Shown here: in pieces, positions 2,024-53,443 of the stretch
Position numbering within the stretch: position 1 is the stretch's first letter
Layout of the letters: each line of letters begins with the position of its first letter
Assembly: GCA_029717555.1 (NCBI GenBank)
Contig: JAMDHS010000003.1
Location: 1-64,000 of the forward strand
Reading direction: 5' to 3'
DNA length: 64,000 bases
Source of the DNA: Peribolospora baueri
Lineage: Eukaryota
Made by a program: the position numbers and the translations under genes
Notes under the pieces: model-generated
The model's database searches: none
What the model was told of the DNA's origin: nothing
What the model saw: only the letters and a program-made list of their open reading frames with translations

Positions 2024-3243
2024 ATGCTCCTCCGCCGCCTATCCTCTTCCGTCCGCCACTTCGCCCCCGCGTCGTCTCGCGCTCGCCGCCTAACTCTCGC
2101 AGGCACCTCCACCCTGCTCCTTGCCGCCACCGGCTCCATCTTCCTCCTCGCCTCCTCCCGTCGCCTGCCCCTTTCCAGCAACCTCGCGACTTTTAGCGCC
2201 ACCAAAGACCTCCACAAGAAGGGCGCCATGAGCAGAACCGACTTTGTGCAAGGAAGGTCCGAGAGCGATTGGCAGGCCAAGCTGAGCAGGGAGCAGTTCA
2301 GGGTGTTGAGGCAGAAAGGCACGGAGATGGCGGGGACGGGAAAGTTCAACAAACACAAGGAGAAGGGTGAGTTGCTGGGGGCAGGAACGGGGTGCCGGGT
2401 GCGCCGACCGATCGAACGAGGGCGGCAGCCGAACTGACGTCGTTGCGCTCCACTCGCCTCGTCACATGCGCACCCACACCACACAGGCATCTACACCTGC
2501 GCAGGATGCGGCACGCCTCTGTACGAGTCCAAGACCAAGTTCGACTCTGGCTGCGGCTGGCCCGCCTTTGTGAGCCAAGCTTTCTTTTCCCCCGACCTTG
2601 CCTCCGTTCGCCATGTCATGTCGATCTGCGCGGACGCACTACATCTTGTCGGCTCTCTCGACACCCAAGAAGGGAGCGGGTTAGGCTGAAGGGAGACTCC
2701 TTCTTTGCTTCTCATGCAGTACGATGCCATACCTGGCGCGATCGACCGGCATGTGGACCACTCGCTCGGTATGGTGAGAAAGCGGATGTCGAGTGTCCTG
2801 AAGGGGAGAAGCTGAGCTGAGCGGAGAGTACGAGGGCGAGGACGAGATGCGAGACACGGCGGTAGAGGGCTGATGCACGTCGTCGTTTCTTTTTCTTTTT
2901 CTTTCTCGACCAAATCGCCCCCTCTTCGTCTCCACTAGAGACGGATCGAGATCACCTGCGCAGCCTGTGGAGGACACCTGGGCCACCTCTTTCAGGGCGA
3001 GGGGTTCCCGACTCCGACGGACGAGCGGCATTGCGTCAACTCCATATCACGTGAGTACTGCCGCTGCATGCGGATGCTCGCCGTCTCGGCAGGGCTCCAC
3101 ACCCGCCCCGCTCGGTGAGAATCTCGCTTACCGCCGTCGACGCCCCGTCCCGTCCCGTCCCATCCCATCCTATCCTATCCCTGACAGTCGACTTCACCGC
3201 CGACGACCAAGCTCGCGCCAAAGCAGACTCCCCGAAGAAGTAG
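2024..3243 (+). CDS. msrB: Peptide-methionine (R)-S-oxide reductase MsrB (SelR), 5 exons, N-terminal presequence-like extension
   Basis: [56 protein letters not shown] and ERHCVNSIS. Stop TAG at 3241-3243. Confidence 0.95.
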
Positions 3244-3531: not shown

Positions 3532-3588
3532 GAAGAAGAAGAAGAAGAAGAAGAAGAAGAAGAAGAAGAAGAAGAAGAAGAAGAAGAA
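3532..3588. repeat. (GAA)19 microsatellite between convergent msrB and cyclase 3' ends
   Basis: Perfect GAA run read directly. Confidence 0.95.
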
Positions 3589-3702
3589 GAGAAGGAAAGG
3601 ACGCTGGACGCTCAAATAACTTAATTGGGCGCTCGTGCCAAAGGTCAAGCTCGGGCGGGCGAGCGAGGCGTTGACTCGGACGCGGGCGGATCTGACGGGA
3701 GT

Positions 3703-6245
3703 TCAGAAGATGGCGCTGGCGTTGGCAGGGCTCGCGACGCCGCCGTAGAGGTTGAGCGGCCAGGAGGAGAAGAAGAAGGTGTAGCGGCCCGTGGCGGCGC
3801 AATGGGCTGCGACGGCTTCGACTGTGCGCGAGTTGGCCCGGGTACGCGGACGAGGTGCCCGAGGGCGAGGGAGGGAGGAGGCGACGTTAGCGATCGTGTG
3901 GTTCGATGTGTAAGTGAGAGCGAGGGAGGGATGGAGGAAGAGCACTTACGCTGTCATGAGAGAAGGATGCGATTTGCAAGGGGGCGACAGAAGCGGTAAG
4001 TTGAAAATCGGGGTCGAGGCAACTCGTTCAACCAACCATCCTCTTGCGACGACCAAATGAGCACACCGCAACAACGCCAGACTCACGTCGAACATTTCTC
4101 CGATCTGCGAGTGCGCAACAATTGCGTTGGTATTGGAAAAAGAAAAAAAAATTGCAGGATGAACAAAGCGTCTCGAATGCGCACGCACGATCATCTCACG
4201 CCTTTAAGGATGGGAGCCAAACTTACAGGACATCCCCAGAGGGCGAGAAGCGTCTCGTGGAGATGCTGCTCTCCCTTCGGCGGGGGCCACCTCTCGAAGG
4301 CGGGCGCGTCGCCTGCAAAGGGACCACATATACAGCGGAGCGGAGCGACTGAACGTCATGTTCCGCAGAACGGAACAGCATCGCGTCACTGTGATCAGAC
4401 TCACCAGCGACGGCAGCAAAGTGGTTGTCCCACAGGAACGCCTTCATCTCCTCTCCCTGCTCCACACCCGCTAGTTTCTCGTTACCTCCCGCGCCCCATG
4501 TGTCGCGCTCCACTTCGGTCGAGTTGTAGTACCTGCATGTGCACGTCAATTTGTAGGGAAAGTAAGATAAAAGGGAAGGTTGAGCGCCGCCCGCGGGATG
4601 AAGGGTTGGGGACTAGCGTGTGATAACGCACGTCTCCACCCGCTCACCTCCTGATAAACCCGCTGCGGATCATCAAGATGTCCCCCTGCCTAAAAGTGAC
4701 GCCCTGAGCCTGTGCGACCTCCTTCAGAAGCGCAACGCTGAGGGGATGACTAGTGCAGGGGTCGTATGGTCCCTTTTCCTTGTCGACCGACTCCTTTTTG
4801 ATCAAGTAGCCCCAAACGTCAAGAAGAACACCTCTTCCAACAATCCCGTGCTGCGCCCAGGCCTGAATGCCGTTGCGGATGGAAGAGGCGTAAGGGGTGG
4901 AGGCGTGGAGGGAGGGATCATGAGGGTGCTTTTGAGGGCCGGTGGGGATATCCTTGCGGGTGACACCGTTGTAGAAGCAGTTGAGGGGGAGATGGCCGAA
5001 GTGACGCTGTAAATAAGGAGGAGAAAGCAAGATAGAAGGGCGTATCAGGTCAGAGTGTCGAGTCGAGTATCGACGCGACCTCGGCCACAAGCATTCCATG
5101 CGAGATTTTCCAACTCACTAAGCCGTCCCATTGAGTGCCACTGTTGACAAAGGTAAATAAGTAGCGTATACCGGGAGAAAGACCAGACCGCTCTATGTGT
5201 CAGAATCGAGCACTTCCCGCTCGTCCACCGTCCGCCTTTCCATGTCTCTTTCAACTGAATGTACGGTGCGAAAGCCTTCGCTCTTCCTTCTGGGCCCTGA
5301 CGGGACGCTCACCTCTGTGAGTTGACGTGTAGTTCCTCATCGTTCAGTGGGGCTTCCAAAAAATCGGGATGCGCTTTGCAGGTAGGAGCAGGACGAGGCA
5401 GAGTGGGCAGGCAAAACGCAGGCGAAAAAGAAAATGGCGGGTGGTCAGCAACGTAGGGAGAGAAGAATCGCATGACACAGGTGGTCCCAGCTCTCTCGAT
5501 CTTCACTTGGCGCGATATAGCACACCACATCATGTCATTACGCCTTACCAAGCTCTACCACCACTTTCTTCCCCTTCTCTCTCTGTGCCTCCCGCACTTG
5601 TATATAACGGCCACCACCCTTACCAATTACTTTGTGCTCAGCGTGACGTCTGGTGGCCGGCGCACACAAGGAGCAGTGTGATCAGGGACTCTTTCCGGGT
5701 GCGCAGCCCAATTCGACGTCGAGACACCACATGGCGGTGGATAGTAGAGAACGAAGGGCGTGGAGAACAACAACGAACTTACCTGCGAAACATGGGCTTG
5801 AGAGGGAGGTGCAAGGGCCAGTTGAGGGAAATGGCATGTCCTGTCTTGATCTCCTCTTGAGCAGCTTGCTTGGTGACGGAAGGGGTCAAGAGATTGACCG
5901 TGCCAAGCTAGAGAGGCAAGGAAGCGCAAATTGAGAGTAGAGAGCGCAGGATAAGGACGAAAGCCAGAAAATACCCTTTCGAAGGTCAGGGCTTGTGGAG
6001 AGCGTTGTCCATGGAGACTCAAATTGCTGTGGTACGCGCTAGATGGTGTGCACTAGACGCACCTCATCGCCGTCACCCCATACACCCCAGGCGCAACCCG
6101 GGTATCCATCCTTGTGGGGTAAGTCCTTGTAGCTGGGCAGATTTTTCCACTCCTTCTGGGTTGCGGCCGAATCGGGGACGACGTGCTGGGCGAGCGAGGC
6201 GAGACGGCCAGAGACCGAATTGTTGTTGGTGTTATCGTCAGACAT
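3703..6245 (-). CDS. Putative cyclase / kynurenine-formamidase-like metal hydrolase (fungal type), 11 exons including a predicted 1-nt exon at 3950
   Basis: AWGVWGDGDE|LGTVNLLTP, SLNWPL, NSQSGTQWDGL|RHF, GIVGRGVLLD, GDILMIRSG, FLWDNHFAAVAGDAPAFE, LHETLLALWGCP|IGEMFD|L|EAVAAHC..RYTFFFSSWPLN..GGVASPANASAIF*. Confidence 0.88.
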
Positions 6246-22516: not shown

Positions 22517-23445
22517 CTCTGGTTGGGCGAGTGGCGACAAATGCAGGAAATGTCGATGGGGATGAGAAATGGGTGGTACGAGGAGACGCGAGGGAAGGAG
22601 ATAGAGGGACGAGACTTATTCATGTGGGGTCGCCAATCGCCCTGGGGTTAAGGCTCTGACGTGGTCAGGTGGGCTCTAAGACTGTCAAGGGAAAGAGAGT
22701 CAGACAGGTAGTGAATCTGACACTTGGCCGTAGTGTTGTCCGCTCAAGTCGGCGTTTGCTGCGACGGAACAGCAAAGGCGCTGGAGAACAACATGATGCG
22801 GAGCACTCCACCCAGGAAAAGTGTCGCGGTTACCAAATCGCCTGTGCACAAAGTGACCCATGTCAAGCGCTGAGCCCTACGCGAGCGAGGGAAAGAACAC
22901 GGATGTTTGATAGACACGCCTTCAAGCAAGTCGTCTTGTCGTGTCCATCATGGGCGCGAGTAAGCCTTGATCGCTATCTATCAGTCGCCGCTGCGGCAAG
23001 GGCCGGATTGCTCCTCCTATCATCACGCTCATAACAAAGCCATGTCGCAACATGATAAACATGATCCTCATCGCCATCGTTGATCATAATGTCTTGGCTT
23101 TTTGCTGACTATCGCGCGGGCATCCTGGTAGCATCCTGTTGGCTGCATTCGTGCTTAACAGGTACCATGAAAAGACGGATTAAATACGGTTCCGGCCCTG
23201 TTGACGGACGCCTGTCTCGCCGCGAGACCGCCCTTTCCCGCTCTTCTGACTTCCGGTCACCTCATCCCCTCAGGTGAACCAGCTCGGGCCGTTGTCTCTG
23301 GTTCTCTCTATAATCGACTGCCTGTTCTGCATGCCCTTACTTATGATACATCCAGAGTCTGGAACAGCGAGCACAGATCTTTGTGCCATAAAGCTCAGGG
23401 TAAGGCTTTCTGTACGGCGCCACTGATTGTCACCTCACAGCAACT

Positions 23446-26400
23446 ATGGATCCTCCAATGTCACCGCCCAGACATGATCAGCATGTTCTCTGCTTCTCAT
23501 CGCAGGGCACAGACTTTCTGCCCACTATTGCTCAATTTCTCAAGCAATGCGAGCGTCAGCCCAAGCGCTTCGCCGCGCTCAGTCTCTTTCTCGACCAGAC
23601 CGCGTCTACTCTGCGTCACGACGTCAAAGCCGCCAACATTCCTGGCGTAGCTAGCTGCGACTTTCTCAGGCTTCTCGGCTTGTGCTCCTCAACTGAAAGC
23701 CCGGCGAGCGAAAGTTTGTGGGATTCTTTCTTGCCCATCGAGCGTCACATCAAGAGACATGGCAGTTTTACAGCTTCGGCACACATGATCTCTCAGATCG
23801 GTCTCTACCTCTGGTGGCTCACCGACGGCGATCTAAACCAGGAAGAAGTCGTCAGCATGAAGGCCGAGGATGCTGTGGACTGGCAGATAGGCGTATCAGG
23901 CTTCTCTTCTGGCTTCCTCGCGGCTGCCATCGTCACATACTCAAGGAATCTCACCGATCTTATCTCCAATGGAGTTCAAGCAGTCAGACTCGCGTTCTGG
24001 ATTGGGTTGGAGGCACACAAAGTTCGGCAGGAGGAGGATACTGAGGCCAACCTTTTGTGCTCCTGGTGTTTAGCCGTGAACGGCGTCGACTTCCGGCGTA
24101 TCCAGGAGCTAGTCAAGGTGTTCAACGAAACTGTGAGCCTAAGGTCCTGTCAGATTGAGCGAGTACAATTTGCACTAACACGCCCTTTTATATTTTGGAA
24201 GCTTGACGGTAATGACGGACGCCCTATTTCTCAACTCTACGTCAGCGCTGTCGCTACGCCGACGTGCGTTACGGTGAACGGACCGCACAGCGCCCTGCTA
24301 GCCTTTCGACAGCGTCTCGAGAAGGACGGCAAGACGAACTCGACGGACAAGTCAACGTTGTTTCTAGACCTTTTTACACCTTATCATTCCCGCCAACTAC
24401 TTACTACGGCCCACGAAACCGTTATCGGACACACCCTACTTCACGACATCCAGTTCATTTTCACGCCCAATTCCCGCATTGTTCTCCTTTCGCCAGTCGC
24501 TGGCACCGAAGTGACGTTGGTTGGCGGCCCCTCGGTTTCGCACGGCGACGAAATCGTTCGGACCGTCTGCGACTCTCTCCTTTTGGAGGCGTGCCGCTGG
24601 GACGAAGTATGCAGCTCCGTAGTCGACATGTTTGCCTCGGGTCCGTCTTCGGCCATGCAGATCACTGTCTTCGGTCCCAACGTCGGCTTCGCTCGTCAGC
24701 TGCGTGAGCATGTGATTGCCAGTTCGGGCCGCATGCCCGCAGATGTTTTCCTTGATAGGGTCACAGCCCGAATGGCGGGGGCGCCACGACAGCAAAGGGA
24801 CGCCAAGGAGAAGGTTGCCATCGTCGGGTTAGGATGTAGGCTTCCGGGCAACGTGGAGGAGCCGGAGGAATTGTGGGAGCTGCTCAAAGAGGGCGGCTGT
24901 ACCATGGAAGAGGTGAGCATCAGACGCTGGAGCTGAACATGAGGTATAGCTCTCTAACGCTCCTTTGTATCTTCAAAGGTACCGCCATCACGCTTCGATG
25001 TCAATGACTATTGCTCCGAAACGGGAGAGGAGCGGAACAAGATGAGAGCCCGGTACGGCCATTTTCTTTGCGAACCAGGTGCTTTTGACGCAAACTATTT
25101 CAACATGTCCCCTCGTGAGGCGCTCAACACCGACCCCCAGCAGCGCAACCTTCTCGAGACTGCGGTCAAAGCCCTAGATGATGCCGGGTATCAGCCAGAC
25201 AAGGGGGCGTGGCAACGAACCCGTATTGGATCCTTTGTGGGAGTGGCTACCGATGATTACCACCAGGCGAGTGACGGCTCATAGATCAAACGTTCGCGCA
25301 TTGGCTCTTCCTTACCTTTTTTTGGGCGGCCCCGCAGAACATTGCACAAAATATCGACTCGTACTACTGTCCGGGCACCATACGAGGCTTCGCGGCGGGT
25401 CGTCTTAGCCACTTCTTCAAATGGGAAGGACCTTCGCTCACCTTGGACACGGCATGCTCATCCAGCATGGTTGCCGTGCACGAGGCTTGTCAGGCGCTGC
25501 GCACCAACGAGTGTGACGCTGCACTGGCTGGGGGCGTCAGCATCATCTCTGCTCCAGAGATGTTCATTGGCCTCAGCAAGGGATACTTCATCTCGAACAC
25601 GGGAGGTAGCAAGACCTTTGATGAGACTGCCGACGGGTACTGCAGAGCCGAGGGGTTCGGTGTCGTTGCCCTCAAGCGCCTGAGCGATGCAATCAGAGAT
25701 GAAGATCGTATTCATGCCACCATCGTCGCGTCGGGCACCAACCAAAGCGGGACGTCCGAATCCATCACCCACCCGCATGCGCCAACTCAGGCCAAATTGT
25801 TCAAGCAGAACTGCGAGCAGGCAGGAATCGATCCGCTCTTTATCAAAGTTGTCGAAGCGCACGGCACTGGTACTCAGGCTGGTGACGTTAACGAGATGGC
25901 GAGCATTCAGGAGGCGTACTGTCGAGCGCGTCCATCGAGCGACCCCCTTTACGTGAGCGCTCTGAAGCCCAACATCGGTCACTCTGAAGCCGCTTCGGGT
26001 ATCTCCAGTTTGCTCAAGGCGGTCTTGATGCTCAAGCACAAACAAGTCGTACCTCACAAAGGGGTCATCACCCGTCTCAACACCAAGTTCAGGTCGCTCG
26101 AGGAAACTAGCATCAAGATACCGACCACCGTTGAGGACTTCCTGCCCGCGAAAGGATGCGACAGGCGCATCATATCGGTGAACAACTTTGGCGCTCCAGG
26201 TGGTAACGCAAATGTCGTCGTGGAGGAATATCTCGAACACCGGCGTGAACAGGATGTCAGCCCCAGGACACATCACGTTGTCTTGCTCTCGGCCAAGTCG
26301 GACGTCGCTCTCATCACGACAGCTCAGAAATTGGCCCAGTCACCTGGCCTTGCGACGATGAGCCTCGCGGATCTGTCTTATACAACGACCGCCCGCCGCG

Positions 26401-29400
26401 CCCGTCATCCCCTGCGGATAGCACTGAGTTATTCAAGCCATGACGAATTGCACGCTAAACTCCTTGGAAAGCTAACGCCGGTGGTCTCCAAGCCCGACAA
26501 ACCCCGTGTGGGCTTTATGTGCTCTGGTCACGGAAGCCAGTACACTGGAATGGGCAAGTCGCTTATGGAGAGCTGTCCTACCTTCCGCCGCCTTCTTCAG
26601 CACTGCGACACGGTCTGCAGGGCCTACCATAAGCCAGGCATGATCGGCGTCATTGAGGGAGCGATCAACACGACCGACACCAGGGCATCTGCCGTCATCT
26701 CGACCCATGCGGCCATGTTCTCCGTCGGTTACGCGTTGGGAAAGATGTGGGAGCAATGGGGAGTCAAGCCTGCTGCGCTCGTGGGGCACAGCCTTGGAGA
26801 GTACACCGTGGCTTGTCTCGCCGGGATCATTTCATTGGAAAATGCGCTAAAGTTGGTCGTTCGTAGGGCCGAGCTCCTCGTCAAGCATTTTGAACCCAAT
26901 CATGACGGCATTCTTGCCGCCATCGTTCCCAAGGCCAAGGCGAGGAAGCACTTGTTTCACAGCGGCTGTCAAGACGTCAGCGTGGCATGCTTTAACGCTG
27001 CAGAACAAGTCTGCTTTGCGGGACCGCGTTCTGAGCTGAATCAGTTGAGCGCATATTTCAATCGAATCAAGCCGCCAATCAGCTGCAAACTGCTGGAATC
27101 GCCTTTCGCCTTCCACACGCCGCGCATGCAAGCCGTCTCAAAGGAGCTTCGGGAGGTCGTAGCCAATATCCCTTTCGAATCAACGTCTTGCTTAATCGGC
27201 CTCAATCTTACTGGCGGTGCCGCGCCGGCGGGGCAACCCATGGACGCGGAATACTTTCCCCGGCAGCTGGAGAGTCCGGTCGAGTTTAACAAGATGTTCA
27301 CAGAAGTCGGTCCAGAGGCGGACGTATGGCTCGACCTGAGCGCTTCGCCCGTCTGTCTCGGCCTTGCCAAGGAAGTCCTTTCTCCCGCTCACCTCCTTCC
27401 AACTCTGGAGCGGAACGTCGATTGCTGGAAGAGTATAACCCGGACACTGGTTCGGCTCGAGCACGCCGGCGTTGAGCTGGACTGGGGTGCTTATCATCGG
27501 GGTCAACAGGTCAAGCTCTTGTCTCTTCCGTCCTACCCATTCTGTCACTCCAACTTTTGGATCCCTTACCGCGACCGCGACCTCATGAATAGGAGGGTCG
27601 ACGCATCGACGCATCAATCCTGGAACACCGAGCTCGGCCCGGCGGAGCAGATCGCCGAGGACACCTTCGTCTTGGATTGCACTAACCCAGCGTTTGCCAA
27701 CTTGGTCAAAGGTCATGCCGTGGGAGGCGTGGGCATCGCTCCCGCTTCCTTTTACGTCTATCTGGCGCTCGAGCTGGCCAGTGGCATCATCGTCCGGAAT
27801 TTGGAAATTCTCAGGCCCTTGGTCGCTCAGAAGCAAGATCTGCGCTTCCTCCGAGTCTGCATTCGTAGCCCTCCCGACTCGTTTAAGGAGTGCCAGTTTT
27901 ACGCCAGCTCTACCAAGGGAGAGGAAGGTACTTTGGTCGCCCATTGCCGCACTCTCCGCGACGCCAAGCTCAAGGCGTTTGAAGGCCGGCTGCCGACCGT
28001 GGACTACGCGGACAAGATCTCAAAGCCGCTCTTCTACCGGATCTTCAGCTCTGCTGCCGAGTACGGTTGGGAATTTCAAGCTGTCGAATGTGTGCATCTT
28101 CAAAACGAGGGCAAGCGTGGAAGTGTACTGGCTGATGTTAATGTCCGCGCGATGGCAAGGAAAGGACGCCAATCTGTCGGACCGATTGCGCTCGATACCT
28201 GGATGCAACCGGCGGGCTTTGCGATGAACTTATTCTCCTCGGACAAACTATTCATTGTGGGGAGCATCAACGAGATCCATCTTCCGGGCGGCCCCATCTC
28301 GGCAGCGGAACAGCAAGGCGAGCAAGAAAAGTCGCTGCTCAGGGTCGGGGTCGACTTTTCCTGGACCAACGAGCAGAAGAACGAAGGCAAGGCCGACATC
28401 TGCGTCTTCAATAGCACCGGTCGTCGCGTCGCTTCCATTAAGGGTATGCGCTTTCAAGGTGTCAAGAGGGAAAGTTGGAGGGCTAACGTTGCCGGTTTGA
28501 GCGGGGCGGTCAGAACATCGCCACAGATCAGGTCGTCCTCCTCCTCCCTGGAAGCAGCACCGACATCGCAGCCGATGTCGCAGCCAGCAGAAGAGTCGCC
28601 GTGCTCGTTTTCGCTCGTGACGTCGTCGCCCCTGTCCAGCTACAATTCTAAGAGCGGTGACGATATCAACGCCGATGACGACGACAATGAACAGGTCCAA
28701 AGGCATCCTGTGGTCAGTTCGTCACAGGAGCCGCCGCCTCAAAAGCCTTCTTCTGGGTTCGATCCCGGCGAAGCGCGGGCGACGTTCAGGAAAGCGATCG
28801 TCGAGCAGCTCGGCGTGTCTGCCGACGCTGTCTACGACGATGCGAGCCTGAGCGGGCTTGGTGTGGATTCGATCATGTCGCTTAACCTGCAGAGCGAGTT
28901 CAACCGGCTCGTGGGGCACAAGTTTCCGCGCTTCGACTTGAATGGCGACTCGACGGTGGACGATGTCCTCTCCCAAGCCTTGGCTTTTTGTGAGAAGGTG
29001 CAAGGGGGAGGAGGGTCGAGCGATTCCGGGCACAAGCGCAAGTTTGCCCTCGAATTGGAGAGCGCTGATGCATCGTTCACGCCTACGGTCGCCTCGGAGC
29101 GGACGGACGACGTGGTACATGGACAGGAAAGCAGCACCATGGTCTTCATCCTTCCCGACGCTCTGGGCAACTTTGGCTTCCTCGAGCGCTTTTCGTCGTC
29201 GTCCATCGAAACTGCCCTGATGAGGTGGCCGGACACGTTCAAGGTCTACGACACGCTGCCTGAGCTCGCGATCAGTATGAGGACCAGAATCCTTTCCCTC
29301 GCGTGCGGGCGACCTTTCATCCTTGCAGGTAAGTGTTGCGATCCATTTCCCCAGCCCTTGCTCCGTTTCCTCGTCACCTGAACTGACGGTTTTAACCCCC

Positions 29401-29971
29401 TCTATTTTCCCCACGTGGGCTCACGGCAGGCCATTCTTTCGGTGGTCTTGTCGCATACCAGGTCGCTCGCGAGATCGCTCGTGTCCTAGACTATAAGGGG
29501 TACGGCCCGCTCTGCGGCCTGATGATCATCGATTCGCCTTATCCGCAAGCTCACCAACCGGTGAACGAGGCCATCTTCGAGCGGCTCATCGGACGGGCGT
29601 TGTACACCAGTCGCATCGGCAAGGAGCTGCGCCTGGCTAGGACGATCGTCGCCGACTACGGTGACATAAAGTACCATTGCAACCGTATGGCGGTGAATTT
29701 GCCAGTTACTCTGTTGTCCGCCGACAGTGTGCCGCCGAAGGAGCTCCTCCGTGGGGACGAGGACGAGCGCCGGTTCGATGCGAGTTGTTGCGGGAGCGAT
29801 TGGGACACGAATCGCTGGAAAGCTCCCTTCGGTGGGCGCCTGCGTGTCCACCAGCTGGAGGGCCACCACTTTGACCTGCTGGATGCGAAGCGGGAGCGGA
29901 CGAACGCGCCGCGGGTCGAGGAGGCTCTGAGGGAACTGATCGAGCGTTCCAAAGGCTACAGACGTGAGTGA
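23446..29971 (+). CDS. Non-reducing iterative type I polyketide synthase, SAT-KS-AT-PT-ACP-TE (orsellinic-acid-synthase-like architecture)
   Basis: SAT GFSSG and PYH; KS DTACSSS, EAHGTGTQAGD, KPNIGHSEAASG; AT GHSLGE, AFH; PT GHAVGGVGIAPAS and LDTWMQ; ACP LGVDSIMS; TE AG|HSFGG, IIDSP, GHHF. Introns 24133-24201, 24913-24978, 25267-25337 (GC-AG) and about 29329-29429. No KR/ER/MT motifs seen. Confidence 0.95.
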
Positions 29972-30804: not shown

Positions 30805-31749
30805 ATGATCATGTTCCTCATACGCAACGTCCTCGCCCTCCTTCTAGTCGCTCTCATCGCCTCGACCATCCTCACCGACACCAGCGCGGCGGACGCTCGC
30901 ATGGTCCGTAAGAGCGTCAACGCCCCTCACGTGGCCGCGGTGGAGAAGCGCCAGGGACAGGACCCGACGAGCATCATCACCAGCGTCCTCGACCAGCTCC
31001 TTGGAGAGCTCACCGGGCCGCTAGGTCAGCTCGGTGAGTGGACCGGAAAGGAGCATTGTCATCGCCGGTAGAACCCGTGCTCAACCATCTGCTCTCGTTC
31101 ATCCTTTTGGCCTCGCTTCAAATCCAGGATCCGTTGCCAATACCAGTGGCGCCACCAGTTCGGCCCTCTCAAGCCCCGTCAACGCCCTCGATGGCGTCCT
31201 CCAATCCGCCGTCGCTTCTCTCGGCAAGCTCAGCACTCAAGGTGTCAACACCAACGTCTCGTCCACCGGGACCGGGACGGACCCAGTGACCGCTACCGCC
31301 ACGCAGGTGTTACAGAACATCAACGTCGGCCTCGGTCAGATTGAGAGCAAGCTGCAGAGTGAGTTCTGTCCGACGACACTCGACGGACTGGTGGCCTCAA
31401 CCTACGCACCTACCTACGCGTTTCCTTCGTCTTCACAGGCATCCCCGGCGTCGGAAGTGTCCTCTCCCCCGTCGACCAGTCGCTCAACACGCTCATCACC
31501 TCGCTCGAGACGGTCGCCACCGGCGTCACCGGCCAGCTGGGCGGCGCGTGAGTGCACGTCCGTCCCATCGAGTCCGCTTGCAATTGGTTCGCGATGATGG
31601 TTCACCTCGCTCACTTCTCCGTCCCTCCCTCCCTTCTTCTTCTACCCCCATCATCGTCTCCACACGCAAACACCCCCCACAGCCTCGCGCCCGTCGCTCA
31701 GACCCTCTCTGGCCTCGGCCTCAATAACCTCCTTGGCGGTCTCCTCTGA
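30805..31749 (+). CDS. Small secreted helical protein B (paralog of 19020-19919), 4 exons, Kex2-like KR site, no Cys
   Basis: Signal MIMFLIRNVLALLLVALIAS; VEKR|QGQDP; introns 31034-31127, 31359-31438 and 31548-31682; ends QTLSGLGLNNLLGGLL*. Confidence 0.8.
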
Positions 31750-35895: not shown

Positions 35896-38225
35896 ATGAC
35901 GAGCGTGGACAGACCCCCAGCGCCCTCCCTAACCCGCCTCACAACCACCTTTGATCCCCTCCCCGCCCTCTCCGATCTCTTCCTCCACAAGTCCGGCTCC
36001 AAGAGCTACACGCAACAGTATGCCAACATTTACTTTATCCGTCTTCGCATGCTCGGCGGCCGAGCTCTCCAGAGCGCCCAGGCGCTGTGGGATGGTGAGT
36101 CCGTGGAAAAAAGGGGTGTCTTCCTCGTCCAGTAGACTCCCTTCTGGTCGTACAAGAGGACAATGGATGACATTGTCCGCTCCCATTGCGTCAGACCAAG
36201 ACCCCAAGCCGAAACACGTCCAGCGCATCCTAGACGTGGAGCAAGGAGAGCTGTGCTACATCGTCGGCACGGTGTACATGGACATGCCTCTCAAGCCCAG
36301 CGTGTTGGACGATATCACCAAGGAGGTGAGAGAGCGAGCCCCGTGCCCCACTCCGGCCGAAAATAGGACAAATTGGAATAGCCGCCGTCTTGCTGATCCG
36401 CTTCGCAACCTCTCCTTCCACCGTTTTTTCCGCTCCTCCACGTTTCAGCAATGGGTCACCGCTCCTCCGCCCCGGACAAAATTCTGCGGACCGGATGACG
36501 AGATGATGCTGGAGGACGAGAGCGGACGTGTCAAGCTCGTTGGCGACCGCTTGGCCACTTTTAGGGATCGGCTCGTCACTGGTGAGCTTTGTCTGGTCGC
36601 AGGCGCGAGGGGGGTGAGAGCAGCGTGGTGGGCGGGGACAAACGAGCGGTTTGGCCAGAACGACGTTGCCGATCCATGACTCCCCCCTCTCTTGTCGCCC
36701 TCCGCTGGCTCGTTTTTTGTAGGCATCATCGTAGGTGTACTCGGCGCCGAAACGAGCGCGGGCGATTTTGAGGTGGTCGACATCTGCTTTCCTGGCTTGC
36801 CCAAGCAGATGCCCGCCGTCAACGCAGGTGCGTGTGTCTTCTCTTCTGCAGCCACCGACGAAGCCGTTCATGCAGACGCCCATATGCTGTCGTTCTTTCC
36901 TTCCTTCCCTCCTGTCAGCCGTCAAGGCCGAGCCGGCGGGAAATGATGACGATAACAGCGACGAGGGACCGTGGGTCGCCATCGCTTCCGGTCTGGACGT
37001 CGGAGCGTCCAACGCGCTCGCCGAGATGCGATTACAACTGCTCGTCGAAATGCTCACGGGCGAGTTGGGCGGTGAGGAGGTGAGCGGCCGGCGGCGTTCG
37101 ACCGTCGTTTCGACCGTCGCTCACCTCGGACGTCTTCTGATGACGACCGACGTTCTTTCACTCTCGAACGACATTTGCAGGATCAAGTAGCCAGCGCCAA
37201 GATCTCGCGGCTCATCATCGCGGGCAATTCCATGGCCCAGCCGGTGCGAGCCGAGGATGACAAAAAGGCGGTGAGCAGTGCGCTCGGCGCCTTCTCTAGC
37301 GGAACGTTTGGCATCGCTGACGTCTCCTCTCATTCTCTTCTTTCCTCTTTGCCATCATCGATCAGAAACGATACGGCTACGATTCTTCTACCTACTCCGA
37401 CAAGCCGACGACCACGCTCGACGAGCTTCTGACCGACATTGCCTCGACCATGAAAGTCGACCTCATGCCAGGAGAGAACGACCCCGCGGCAGTGACGATG
37501 CCGCAACAGCCTGTTCACTTTGCCCTCCTGCCCCGGGCGAGTCGATTCGACAGCTTGAATTTCCGGAGCAACCCTTGGTGGGCGGAGATCGCGGGGAGGA
37601 CGTGAGTGTCCTCGTCATCCGTTTGAGACGAGCGCAAGCCTTGGCTCTTCCTTTTTCCACTGATCACTCGACCTGTCGTCGATTGGCCAAATGCTCACTG
37701 TTTTCCTTTTGTCCACCTTACTCGACAGCTTTTTGGGTACATCTGGCCAGACGCTTGACGACATTTTCAAGTACGTCGAGTCGGACGACCGGTTGCAGAT
37801 GGCATGCGACACGCTCGAGTGGAACCACATAGCGCCCACCGCCCCGGACACGCTTTGTGAGTCCTTTCCATCCCTCTATCTATGTCAGGCCCCGCCCAAC
37901 CTCCTCTGACCCTGCCTCTTTCCTCCGCCTTCGCCTCGCTCCCCGAACTCGTACAGGGTGCTACCCCTTTGTGGACCGAGACCCGTTTGTCATCTCCCAA
38001 TCTCCACACGTCTATTTTGCTGGGAACCAGCCCCGGCTGGAGTCCAAACTGATCCAAGGTGGCGACAAAGAGGGAGGAAGCGGGGAAGGCCAACCCGTTC
38101 TTGTCGTTTTGGTGCCGAGGTTCGCCGAGACGGGAGAGGTGGCGCTCGTGAATTGTAGAACGCTCGAGTGTCGGAGATTGTGCGTCGAGGTGCCGAGGGC
38201 GTGGATGGGGGAGGAGGAGCGATAG
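35896..38225 (+). CDS. pol31: DNA polymerase delta small subunit (POLD2/Pol31/Cdc1)
   Basis: YTQQYANIYFIRL, CYIVGTVYMDMPLKPSVL, LEDESGRVKLVG, LVTG, ISRLIIAGNS, MPGENDP, MPQQP, FLGTSGQ, HIAPTAPDTLWCYP, DPFVI..PHVYFAGNQ, VPRFAETG. Confidence 0.95.
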
Positions 38226-49789: not shown

Positions 49790-52219
49790 TCACGAAGTAT
49801 CTTGTACGTTGCTCTTCAAAAACCCGTCGAAAAGGCGCGCGCAGCCTTCGACGTCCTCGACGGCGTGCCAGTGTCCGACCCCCTCGAGTTGCACGATCCT
49901 TGACCAGCACAGAGCCTTGCCCAGCGCCTCGACCACGGGCGCGGGGCTGACCTGGTCCTCGTCGCCCGAGATGATCAGCACGGGCTGCTTGATCGATCCG
50001 TACTCCGGATCCCTGCCGATCGCCATCGCCTCGCAAGCTCGGGCGTATCCTTCGGGAGAGGCAGATTGGAGGAGCTGGCGGACGAGGGATATGGAGAGAG
50101 GACGGGAGGAGCGTGTGTGAGAGGAGAGGCCGGCGTGGAGAATGGCATTGACGACGGCGGACATGCCCTTTTCGCGGACGAGGGTGGCGCGCTCTAGGAT
50201 CGTGGGAACACGGACGGAAGGGATGGCTTTGATGGGGCCAATGAGGACTGTGAGAAGGCATCACGGAACGCGCAAAATGGTTGATATCAGTTGCATTAGC
50301 CATCCCGGTCTCTTCAAGAACATATGAAGGAAAAGACTGAGGGCGACCACTCACTCATCTTGCTGACCAGCTCAGGGTATGCTGCCGCAAAGGTATTGGC
50401 GATGAGCTGCGCCGAAGGAAAGACGAGAAAGGCGGACGAGTCAGGCCGGTCAGTCGCCATAGATTGATTCGCCAGGGTGTGATGGAAAAAGAAGGGTCCC
50501 ACTCACTCCGCCCATCGAATGTGCGACTATCACCACGGGGCCCTTCGTCGCTGTAGCTTCGAGGACGTCTTTAACGTCCTGCACGTACCCATCGATGCTA
50601 GGCCTATCCTCCTTCTGCGCTGTCCCCTTCTTCGTTCGTTGGTAGGAGACGGGACTCGACCCGTGTCCTTCGAGGTCAAAGCACACGAGCCGATGAGTCT
50701 TGCCCAGTTTGGTCGCCTCGATCACCGGCCTGAAAAAGTTGAGTGTGCCGCCAAGGCCGTGGATGAAAAGAACCGTCTCAGCCCCGCCAGATACGTCGCT
50801 GCTGGAGGGCTCGGAGATCTCTACGTGAAGGCGCTTTCCAGATGGCATAGTGACCAGGTCGCAGTCCGGGGCAGCGACCGCCGCCGAGGGGGAGAGACGA
50901 TGGCGCCACGACTCAACGCTGGGAACCTGCATTTGGTAAGGGCCCACCGTGTTGGAGAGCGTGCCAAGCCCTGTGATGGAGATGTCTACCTTGTCACCCG
51001 GCTTGAGAAACTTGGGAGGCTTGAAGCCGAAGCCAACACCAGCTGATGAAGGGAATTGTGGACGCGGGCCGCCAGGCTTAGTTGGCGACAGGGTTCTATC
51101 TCGCGCATCAGAAAATGGCTCCTCTGGAAACCCACCTGGTGTTCCAGTGGCGATGACATCGCCAGGCTGAAGTGTGATGCCATCAGAAATGGCGGAGACG
51201 AGCGTGGGGATGTCGAAGATGAGCTTGTTCGTCGTGCTGCGCTGACGGACCTCGCCGTTGACGCGGGTCTCGACCGTGAGCGAGGCGCCGTCGAGATGCG
51301 AGGAAGGGACGACGTATGGGCCCTTGTTTGGTTAATAGCCCGGATAGAGAAGGGGAAGGTTCAGAACATGGCTGAACGGAATGACAGGGGAACCGGACAG
51401 ACTCCTCGCCCAGATGGCCAGCAATCGTTTACTCTTCACTGACCATAGGACAGAAGGTATCGAGCGACTTTCCAAGATAGAACTGCTTGTGGTCCCTCTG
51501 CTTCTCCCTGGCCGTCACGTCGTTGACGATCGTGTAACCCCAGACGTGTTGCCATGCATCCTCCTTGGAGATCTTGAACCCGGCCTTGCCGATTATGACA
51601 CCCAGCTCGCCCTCGTAGTCGAGCGTCTCGGTTGTTCCCTCGTGCGGATAGATCAGAGCGCCGTGGGGAATGATTGAAGTTGCACGCTTGGTGAAGATGA
51701 CTGGGTTGCCGTTTGAATGAGGAATGCCCCCATTCGAATTTCCCGTGTCCGATGCGTCGTAGCCGGAGACGCTGAACTCTGGATGGCGCAGGCGAGCCAC
51801 AGTGGTGAGGGTGAAGACGACGATGTATACGGACTCCGAACGAACGACGGTCGGCCCACCTTTGGCGTGCTCTACGTAGTTCTTGCCCACCGCGATGACG
51901 TCCCTACCCCTCAGCGGTGCGAGGACCTTGACATCGCGAATCTTTTCCACGGGCTCGCCGGGACGGAGGGAGTCGGCGATGGCGTCCCAATCCTCGAGGA
52001 GGTCGAAGAGCTCGACGATGGGCTCGCCAGTGCACGGGTCGAGGAAGGGCGTGACCGAATCCTCGGTAGCGTTGACGAGGCCGACGCGAGGCTGAGAAGT
52101 GGCCGAGGAGAGGTAAGATAGACTTGGGCGGGGACCAATAGTGTCAGAGGGTGGTCGAACAAGAGGCGCGAGCGTGTCGGTGAGACCGTACGTAGAAGAT
52201 GCTGTACTCACAATTTCAT
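49790..52219 (-). CDS. Fumarylacetoacetate-hydrolase-family domain fused to alpha/beta-hydrolase (enol-lactonase-like); probable 8-nt first coding exon
   Basis: MK|FLSY; VGKNYVEHAK|EF, PVIFTKRATSI, LDYEGELGVIIGK, GYTIVNDVTARE, GKSLDTFCPM|GP, PGDVIATGTP|AGVG, then continuous into FIHGLGG, FDLEGHG, AHSMGG, GDED and GVGHW. Confidence 0.9.
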
Positions 52220-53443
52220 CGCGAGAAGCGTGTCGAGTCCGAGGCTGAGTGATGGAGGAGTGCGCCCTGAATATACAACGTTGAGGATCGTCGTGCGACT
52301 GCAGGCGACGACCTTGCTTGCTTTTCTCTCTTTTCCGGGGCGGTTCAATAGTGTCGCCCATCGTTGAGCGAGGCCGTCGGCGTCGGCAACGACTAACTGC
52401 GCCCACCGAAGGTCCGCTTCCCCGCTCTTGCTAACCTAACCTCACGAATCGCTTGCTTCCTTACTCACCGAGCTCCCCACCAAGGTGCGTTCCCGGTGCA
52501 GCAGATACCGGTCGAGCGCGGCAAGAAGGGCGTCAACAGAACTGCCGGCGAGAGGCAAACGTTGTTGGACGGCAAAACTCCCTCCGCCCATCGGAGATGT
52601 GTAAAAACTTCCGACCCCGGGCGACCGCGATGACAGTTGCCTTGCCGTTTTTCACTCACCTTTTTACTCCCATTCTGACAGATTTGACAGCTGCTTCCGT
52701 TGTTAGGCACCATGCCGTGCCCGTCTCGGCAGGCGGGGCGTGTGGACGGCTCCGCAAGAGCAGTCACAGTAGCGCGAGCCCACCTCGACCGATCAGAGTG
52801 TGGGGAAGACGTCGCATCGTGTGCGTTGTAGTAAGTAAGCATGTCTACGTGTCCAGTGGTTTGCATCGGTGGGTCCTGTCTGGCCTCCGAGCTACCCATC
52901 TCTGCTCGTCGGCTTCACTCAACGTCGGCTTTGCTCGCCCGGCACGTAGTATTGGCTGGCAGCCTTGGACCCTTGAGCCGCCTCGCACTCGATGAGCGCC
53001 GCCTCTGCGCCGTGCAGAGACTGCTACCACTCTCTCGTCGCTACTGGACCCCTTTATACGGCCGTCCGGCCTCGGCATAGCGATGTGCCCCGCAGTGGCA
53101 CGACAGTTTCGCCGTAGGCAACGATCGACTCGGCCGAATCGAGCCCTGCGGGGCGCTTAGCCAGTGGAGTGCCTCTGCCGTGCGACAGAGGCGGCTTTAC
53201 GGGCACCATAGCGGCGTCCAAGTGTGTTCGGGGGCCGAACACGGTGCACGACACGGTCAGCACGTCTGAGACGTACAGGTCGCCATACGCTACTTATTTG
53301 GACCACGACGTCCCTCCACACGACGGAGGGTACACAGCCCGCTGCGCTCGTCGCTTTTTGCCACCACAGCCAACGGTCAGGATTCCCTTCTCTTCTATCA
53401 GAATATCCCAGCGTCCACATCGAACAAGATCGCCTGCACGAGT

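Follow-up and report, generated by a model that had tools for sequence, protein, structure and literature searches.

The window analyzed here is the first 64,000 nucleotides of contig JAMDHS010000003.1 of Peribolospora baueri (assembly GCA_029717555.1), and all positions below refer to it. Close to its beginning, on the minus strand, lies a fungal gene whose predicted product places it in the 'putative cyclase' family (PF04199); its relatives are labeled kynurenine formamidase in some sources. We consider it likely that one nucleotide of this gene, the C at position 3950, is a constitutive exon of its own, placed between two independent U2-type GT-AG introns (Table 1). A one-base exon at this position had been proposed in an earlier, sequence-only reading of the window. 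It came out as the best-supported model in every in silico test, whereas what that reading said about the rarity of such exons and about recursive splicing needs correction, as detailed below. The one-base exon is favored because it restores the reading frame, yields the residues and the spacing of the family, gives the product with the best score against a hidden Markov model (HMM) of the family, is delimited by a motif of low chance probability, leaves introns of normal size, belongs to a gene with other very small exons (22 and 18 nt), and has documented counterparts in fungi.

The coding region of the cyclase gene spans positions 3703-6245 of the minus strand, and the 11-exon model gives a spliced sequence of 1203 nt that encodes 400 amino acids (aa) with zero internal stops. 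The exon preceding C3950 codes for IGEMFD, a motif of the cyclase family, and its phase 0 end meets the phase 1 start of the last coding exon, so that the frame is lost if 4087 is joined to 3821 with no base in between, as had been claimed. Insertion of C3950 at the junction yields FD-L-EAV, and the frame then runs to the normal C terminus of the family, with the stop codon TGA at 3705-3703. The minus-strand positions originally assigned to the IGEMFD exon (4104-4087), its donor (4086), C3950, the branch motif, the final acceptor and the last exon all proved exact. In an alignment with five homologues, the junction is gapless and GEMFD-L-E is restored. The 400-aa model aligns with homologues over its full length at 49-56% identity; the match to P0001 reaches 56% over 405 columns (E 9e-171), and that to P0215, from Pseudozyma flocculosa, 55% (E 2e-144).

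The constraint that the family imposes on this region is narrow. Among 90 homologues, 87 of which contain PF04199 (query, a 119-aa exon), the C-terminal motif was located in 66; three other matches of the regular expression (P0059, P0062, P0077) were set aside, as they fell in different parts of the protein, and 21 homologues had no match. The two residues that follow the final D, H or N of the motif in these 66 relatives are LE (56), LD (5), FE (3) or VE (2), and Leu occupies the position of the C3950 codon in 61 of them. The distance to the next motif, R[WY][ST]F, is similarly fixed, at 13 residues in 65 of the 66. The model with the one-base exon predicts precisely 13 residues, with L-E at the junction, while splicing from GTCTGG, a weak donor at 4082, predicts 14. 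Ten further C termini, retrieved with the last exon as a query, have D-L-E in seven cases and D-V-E in three, with unchanged spacing. Among the four possible bases at the position of C3950, C is the one that yields the consensus Leu.

The sites that flank C3950 were compared with those of the remainder of the gene, whose 10 introns are all of the GT-AG type. In gene order, their lengths are 155, 133, 175, 172, 112, 115, 92, 122, 136, and 128 nt, the last two being the introns on either side of C3950, neither of which lies outside the 92-175 nt spanned by the other eight. Six of nine consensus positions are matched by the 4086 donor and likewise by the 3949 donor, and the former reaches seven if its G at +3 is counted as a permitted purine. 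Pyrimidines make up 72% of the 40 nt that precede the 3951 acceptor, compared with 60-80% in the other introns. The downstream intron has a CTAAC motif (Table 1); in the upstream intron, TTCAAC/CTTAC, about 45-50 nt before the 3951 acceptor, is a candidate branch site only. Six of the other eight introns carry CTGAC or CTGAT 32-82 nt before their acceptors. In both half-introns, the terminal AG is the first one after the branch candidate. An introner-like or duplicated origin of the half-introns was considered and rejected: each occurs only once in the window, and they do not resemble each other.

All paths from the IGEMFD exon to the end of the gene were enumerated, with GT or GC donors, AG acceptors, and one or two introns of at least 40 nt each, and the 1631 resulting products were scored with an HMM built from 56 relatives. 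The highest score, 120.5 bits, belongs to the product with the one-base exon. The runner-up, at 118.9 bits, has T3944 as a one-base exon followed by the GC donor GCTCTT; it was discarded, its acceptor being the AG inside GTAAGT and its donor being poor. The third place, at 112.5 bits, is held by the product of the GTCTGG donor, a single 261-nt intron that had been put forward as an alternative in the sequence-only reading and that, when the exons are joined, indeed gives FD-VI-EAV. While this product is in frame, GEMFD-VI-EAV is one residue over the family length, and its spacing is at odds with that of nearly all relatives. The donor itself matches the consensus poorly (Table 1) and lies 4 nt downstream of GTGAGT; all 10 donors of the gene conform to GT[AG][AC]G, and neither a C at +3 nor a T at +4 is found in any of them. 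As this intron would also turn the motif in its middle into a coincidence, we regard its use as very unlikely.

The product of the direct join scored 49.4 bits. It corresponds to a situation in which the one-base exon is skipped sometimes or usually, giving rise to a frameshifted protein devoid of the conserved C terminus, be it a regulated or non-productive isoform or the sole product. The frame of the direct join does stay open past the normal stop. However, such a protein would lose 38 conserved C-terminal residues, which is reflected in the gap between 49.4 and 120.5 bits, and the in-frame conservation of the last exon argues for its translation. Skipping of this kind thus appears highly improbable.

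How often the arrangement around C3950 would arise by chance was estimated in several ways. The 265-nt interval that separates the IGEMFD exon from the last exon contains a single AG-N-GT of any kind, and this is the strict motif CAG/C/GTAAGT. On both strands of the 64-kb window, YAGNGTRAGT was observed twice, against 1.19 occurrences expected from shuffles, and its rate is about 0.0025-0.004 (0.25-0.4%) per 265 nt of a single strand. When the interval itself was mononucleotide-shuffled 100,000 times, this pattern appeared at a usable position in 0.058% of the trials. The looser pattern AGNGTRMG, which covers every donor type of the gene, was present in 1.1% of the interval shuffles, and its window-wide frequency is 7.7% per 265 nt. 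Chance alone would place the strict motif in about 0.06-0.4% of such intervals, and its presence here is more than chance. The other YAGNGTRAGT of the window (31355-31364, plus strand) proved to be the unremarkable end of an exon (CTG CAG A/GTGAGT) in a Ser/Thr-rich open frame to which no family was assigned.

This estimate bears directly on the main rival of the one-base exon, according to which a single 265-nt intron extends from 4086 to 3822 and one base is absent from the sequence, owing either to an assembly error or to a real deletion, in the latter case a strain-specific frameshift or a young pseudogene. An extra G at either boundary would generate GAC GTC GAA, and the resulting D-V-E is found in 2 of the 66 relatives and in 3 of the 10 additional ones; in addition, the tblastn match to P0011 extends through the Val codon formed by G3822 and TC. 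On the other hand, the mid-intron CAG-C-GTAAGT would then represent a coincidence of 0.06-0.4%, the base enclosed by chance would, in addition, happen to be the only one among four to encode the consensus Leu, and the unsplit intron would be longer than every other intron of the gene. The assembly otherwise looks clean, with nine other canonical junctions in the gene and an unbroken frame of 1368 codons in a polyketide synthase (PKS) gene, and the conservation of the last exon in frame indicates no sign of decay. In our judgment the loss of one base, by error or by deletion, is unlikely. A rough weighing, which is our own estimate and was not computed, comes out about two orders of magnitude in favor of the one-base exon. 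It sets a prior of roughly 1 in 1000 genes for exons of this kind (13 in Coprinopsis, see below) against one of roughly 1 in 100 for an error in the coding sequence of this gene, the latter multiplied by the coincidence.

A product with D-V-E, which fits the family, would also result from a single intron with one boundary moved by a base to a non-canonical site (GT...CA or TG...AG). Boundaries of these types are very rare. Strong canonical sites are present exactly one base off, and the GT-AG rule is followed by all 10 introns of the gene, which makes such a boundary extremely improbable.

Four points nevertheless temper the case for the one-base exon. In a metagenome scan that yielded 13 loci, the 12 that cover the region encode the motif without an intron; all are at most 48% identical and they are mostly intron-free, and thus uninformative. 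G3822 and the following TC spell a Val codon, and because some relatives have D-V-E, a product in keeping with the family would also arise, with no one-base exon involved, if a single G were missing at either boundary. CTRAY is absent from the upstream intron, as it is from introns 6 and 8. Finally, the splice-site norms derive only from the 10 introns of the gene itself; the PKS gene, which was considered as a source of splice-site statistics, has too few introns.

If C3950 is an exon, the 136- and 128-nt introns would each be equipped with their own donor, pyrimidine-rich 3' part and acceptor, and given their short lengths each would probably be recognized across the intron, i.e., by intron definition. 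The acceptor AG at 3952-3951 sits at positions -3/-2 of the next donor, within the expected footprint of U1. With sites overlapping in this manner, the factors that bind them would clash, and the introns would probably be removed consecutively rather than simultaneously. Either order would be workable: removal of the downstream intron first would leave ...CAG/CTCGAAG, and removal of the upstream intron first would leave GACC/GTAAGT, both of which would be ordinary substrates. The predicted mature message reads ...TTC GAC CTC GAA GCC..., with the junction TTCGAC-C-TCGAAGCC, and would encode GEMFD-L-E followed by the normal C terminus. Ordered, recursive-like removal can reasonably be inferred from the overlap between acceptor and donor. 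The likeness to recursive splicing that had been drawn from the sequence does not hold in the strict sense, since one base would be retained between AG and GT. Recursive splicing implies a zero-length exon, with AG directly abutting GT, and removal of the whole interval would produce the frameshifted direct join.

Two further ideas attach to the exon, and we find it quite improbable that either applies. Inclusion of the exon might serve as a splicing-controlled frameshift switch, with loss of the conserved C terminus whenever C3950 is skipped; the overlapping sites would then force a fixed order of intron removal, and the activity of the enzyme would be set at the level of splicing. A related idea is that the exon came into being by compensating for the loss of one base at an old acceptor, given that G3822 together with TC still spells the alternative Val of the family. 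In that event, the origin of the exon would be traceable.

The sequence-only reading had mentioned a single known case, that of Arabidopsis APC11, a view that is outdated, as cases in Fusarium CYP621A and in Coprinopsis cinerea have been published (PMC12940212, PMC12230235). In the CYP621A P450 gene of Fusarium, a one-base exon is present in 20 orthologues and is supported by reads from the Sequence Read Archive (SRA) (Nelson and Syed 2026, PMC12940212). The authors' reasoning relied on out-of-phase exons, an over-long intron, an AG-N-GT motif and the invariant spacing of a motif (PMC12940212). The cyclase case resembles it closely: both concern a fungal nuclear gene with exons one base out of phase and an AG-N-GT within a stretch of about twice the intron length, in both a conserved motif and an invariant spacing are recovered once the extra base is included, and in both the exon is missed by gene predictors. 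In contrast, the Fusarium exon is a G (AGGGT), forms the middle base of a Gly codon and has orthologue and read support, whereas the one proposed for the basidiomycete-like cyclase gene is a C and would form the first base of a Leu codon. It was also proposed for Fusarium that one-base exons rescue the loss of one base at a boundary (PMC12940212); the Val codon that G and TC would form at 3822 fits this idea, although the fit is only suggestive.

A long-read annotation of C. cinerea lists 13 one-nucleotide exons, spread over 13 genes (PMC12230235). Like the cyclase case, they concern a basidiomycete with many microexons, and omission of a microexon breaks the frame (PMC12230235); the C. cinerea exons, in contrast, rest on full-length transcripts. 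In the part of the supplement text covered by a word search, neither 'cyclase' nor 'PF04199' occurs, so that it offers no orthologous case, and a gene table may exist beyond that part (PMC12230235). The single-nucleotide exon of Arabidopsis APC11 was studied with GFP-fusion tests in Arabidopsis and rice (Guo and Liu 2015, PMC4674806). It is likewise a constitutive one-base exon flanked by two ordinary introns, but it belongs to a plant and to another gene family, and it has been tested experimentally (PMC4674806).

Fungal stwintrons also consist of two U2 introns packed together and removed consecutively (PMC5639578, PMC5587772, PMC12403724). In these, however, one intron is inserted into the donor, branch point or acceptor of another and no base is left in the mRNA, whereas the two cyclase introns would lie side by side, with one base kept. 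The arrangement around C3950 does not correspond to a stwintron: the introns are adjacent rather than nested, there is no donor split in the manner of G/GT..., and C3950 is predicted to stay in the message. What characterizes one-base exons is found at the cyclase locus, namely flanking exons that are off by one base, an AG-N-GT in a usable context, conserved residues and spacing, and two complete introns of normal size. On these sequence features, C3950 is a probable further one-base exon of an already published kind, rather than a near-unique one.

Table 1. Exons of the predicted cyclase gene and splicing-related sites around C3950 (positions in the 64-kb window).
Feature	Position	Strand	Length	Description
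Exon 1	6245-6063	-	183 nt	
Exon 2	5907-5783	-	125 nt	
Exon 3	5649-5549	-	101 nt	
Exon 4	5373-5313	-	61 nt	
Exon 5 (of the 11-exon model)	5140-5119	-	22 nt	codes for SGTQWDGL
Exon 6	5006-4648	-	359 nt	largest exon
Exon 7	4532-4405	-	128 nt	
Exon 8	4312-4227	-	86 nt	
Exon 9	4104-4087	-	18 nt	ATC GGA GAA ATG TTC GAC, i.e., IGEMFD; phase 0 at both ends
Donor GTGAGT	4086-4081	-		directly 3' of the IGEMFD exon
Rival weak donor GTCTGG	4077-4082	-		agrees with CAG/GTAAGT at 3 of 9 positions
Upstream intron	3951-4086	-	136 nt	donor gac/GTGAGT, acceptor ...CTTCTCTCATGACAG
Acceptor CAG	3953-3951	-		ends a pyrimidine-rich stretch
Exon 10 (proposed)	3950	-	1 nt	lone C, predicted first base of CTC (Leu), a codon that TC at 3821-3820 would complete
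Donor GTAAGT	3949-3944	-		directly 3' of C3950
Downstream intron	3822-3949	-	128 nt	donor agc/GTAAGT, acceptor ...CGCGCACAG
CTAAC	3890-3886	-		65 nt before the acceptor of the downstream intron
Acceptor CAG	3824-3822	-		followed by TC GAA GCC from 3821
Exon 11 (last coding)	3821-3703	-	119 nt	phase 1: TC, 38 codons (EAVAAHC...ANASAIF) and TGA at 3705-3703

The cyclase gene is intron-rich, with 10 introns for 1.2 kb of coding sequence, and besides C3950 it contains two small exons, of 22 nt (5119-5140) and 18 nt (4087-4104). The 101-nt exon at 5549-5649 of the minus strand codes for a lineage-specific insert (RRHAEHKVIGKGGG...) that is common to P0003, P0004, and P0215. It also accounts for an apparent second frameshift, between exons 2 and 3, as it is located within a seeming intron of 410 nt; there is no second microexon puzzle in the gene. 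In addition to the insert, the cyclase and P0215 of P. flocculosa have several exact stretches in common, and P0215 is the closest named relative in overall architecture. When the largest exon was compared on its own with the Pfam model of PF04199, it scored 20.8 bits for a cut-off of 23.1, a value that pertains to this single exon; the whole model aligns over its full length with proteins that contain PF04199 (E down to 9e-171).

The last exon is 60-67% identical to the C termini of P0001 and P0011 in tblastn comparisons (E about 1e-11), and its best relatives are 67-81% identical to it. In the protein searches (longer proteins; single-exon queries), no protein of the same species was found, the best matches, with 55% and 81% identity over the exon, coming from other fungi. 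Several database 'proteins' of the cyclase family, including P0223, P0003, and P0004, are read-throughs of short in-frame introns. In P0223, the sequence MPIG...GEFFD points to an intron just upstream of GEFFD in a Mycena-like relative. These read-through introns indicate that intron positions near the GEMFD-type motif vary among lineages.

A (GAA)21 microsatellite (3532-3594; TTC/CTT on the minus strand) is situated some 110 nt past the cyclase stop codon, probably in the 3' untranslated region (UTR) of the gene or just behind it. A gene for a methionine sulfoxide reductase B (SelR, PF01641) of at least two exons (2438-3115, plus strand) is convergent with the 3' end of the cyclase gene. Further into the window, the plus strand carries a gene for a non-reducing PKS (23404-29968), which includes the open frame of 1368 codons mentioned above. 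The PKS has SAT, KS, AT, PT/DH, ACP, and thioesterase domains, and among named proteins it is most similar to those of Agaricomycetes, at 49-56% identity. Together with the likeness of the cyclase to P0215, this points to a fungus of basidiomycete type, for which the databases searched contain no close annotated relative. Three gene fragments were also recognized: one for a DNA polymerase delta subunit OB-fold (35933-36676, plus strand), one for an L-ornithine/lysine N-monooxygenase (PF13434; 39607-41364, minus strand), and one for a fumarylacetoacetate-hydrolase domain followed by an alpha/beta-hydrolase domain (50453-52430, minus strand). The PKS and the monooxygenase suggest a secondary-metabolism neighborhood.

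If the one-base exon is real, automatic models of the cyclase gene would be wrong, being frameshifted, truncated or extended by one residue. For annotation practice, this argues for looking for an AG-N-GT motif wherever neighboring exons are one base out of phase. The C3950 site would represent no new kind of mechanism but a further substrate for the question of how the spliceosome handles two overlapping splice sites, and with it the cyclase gene of P. baueri would join the short published list of genes with one-base exons, which so far includes plants, ascomycetes, and a mushroom.

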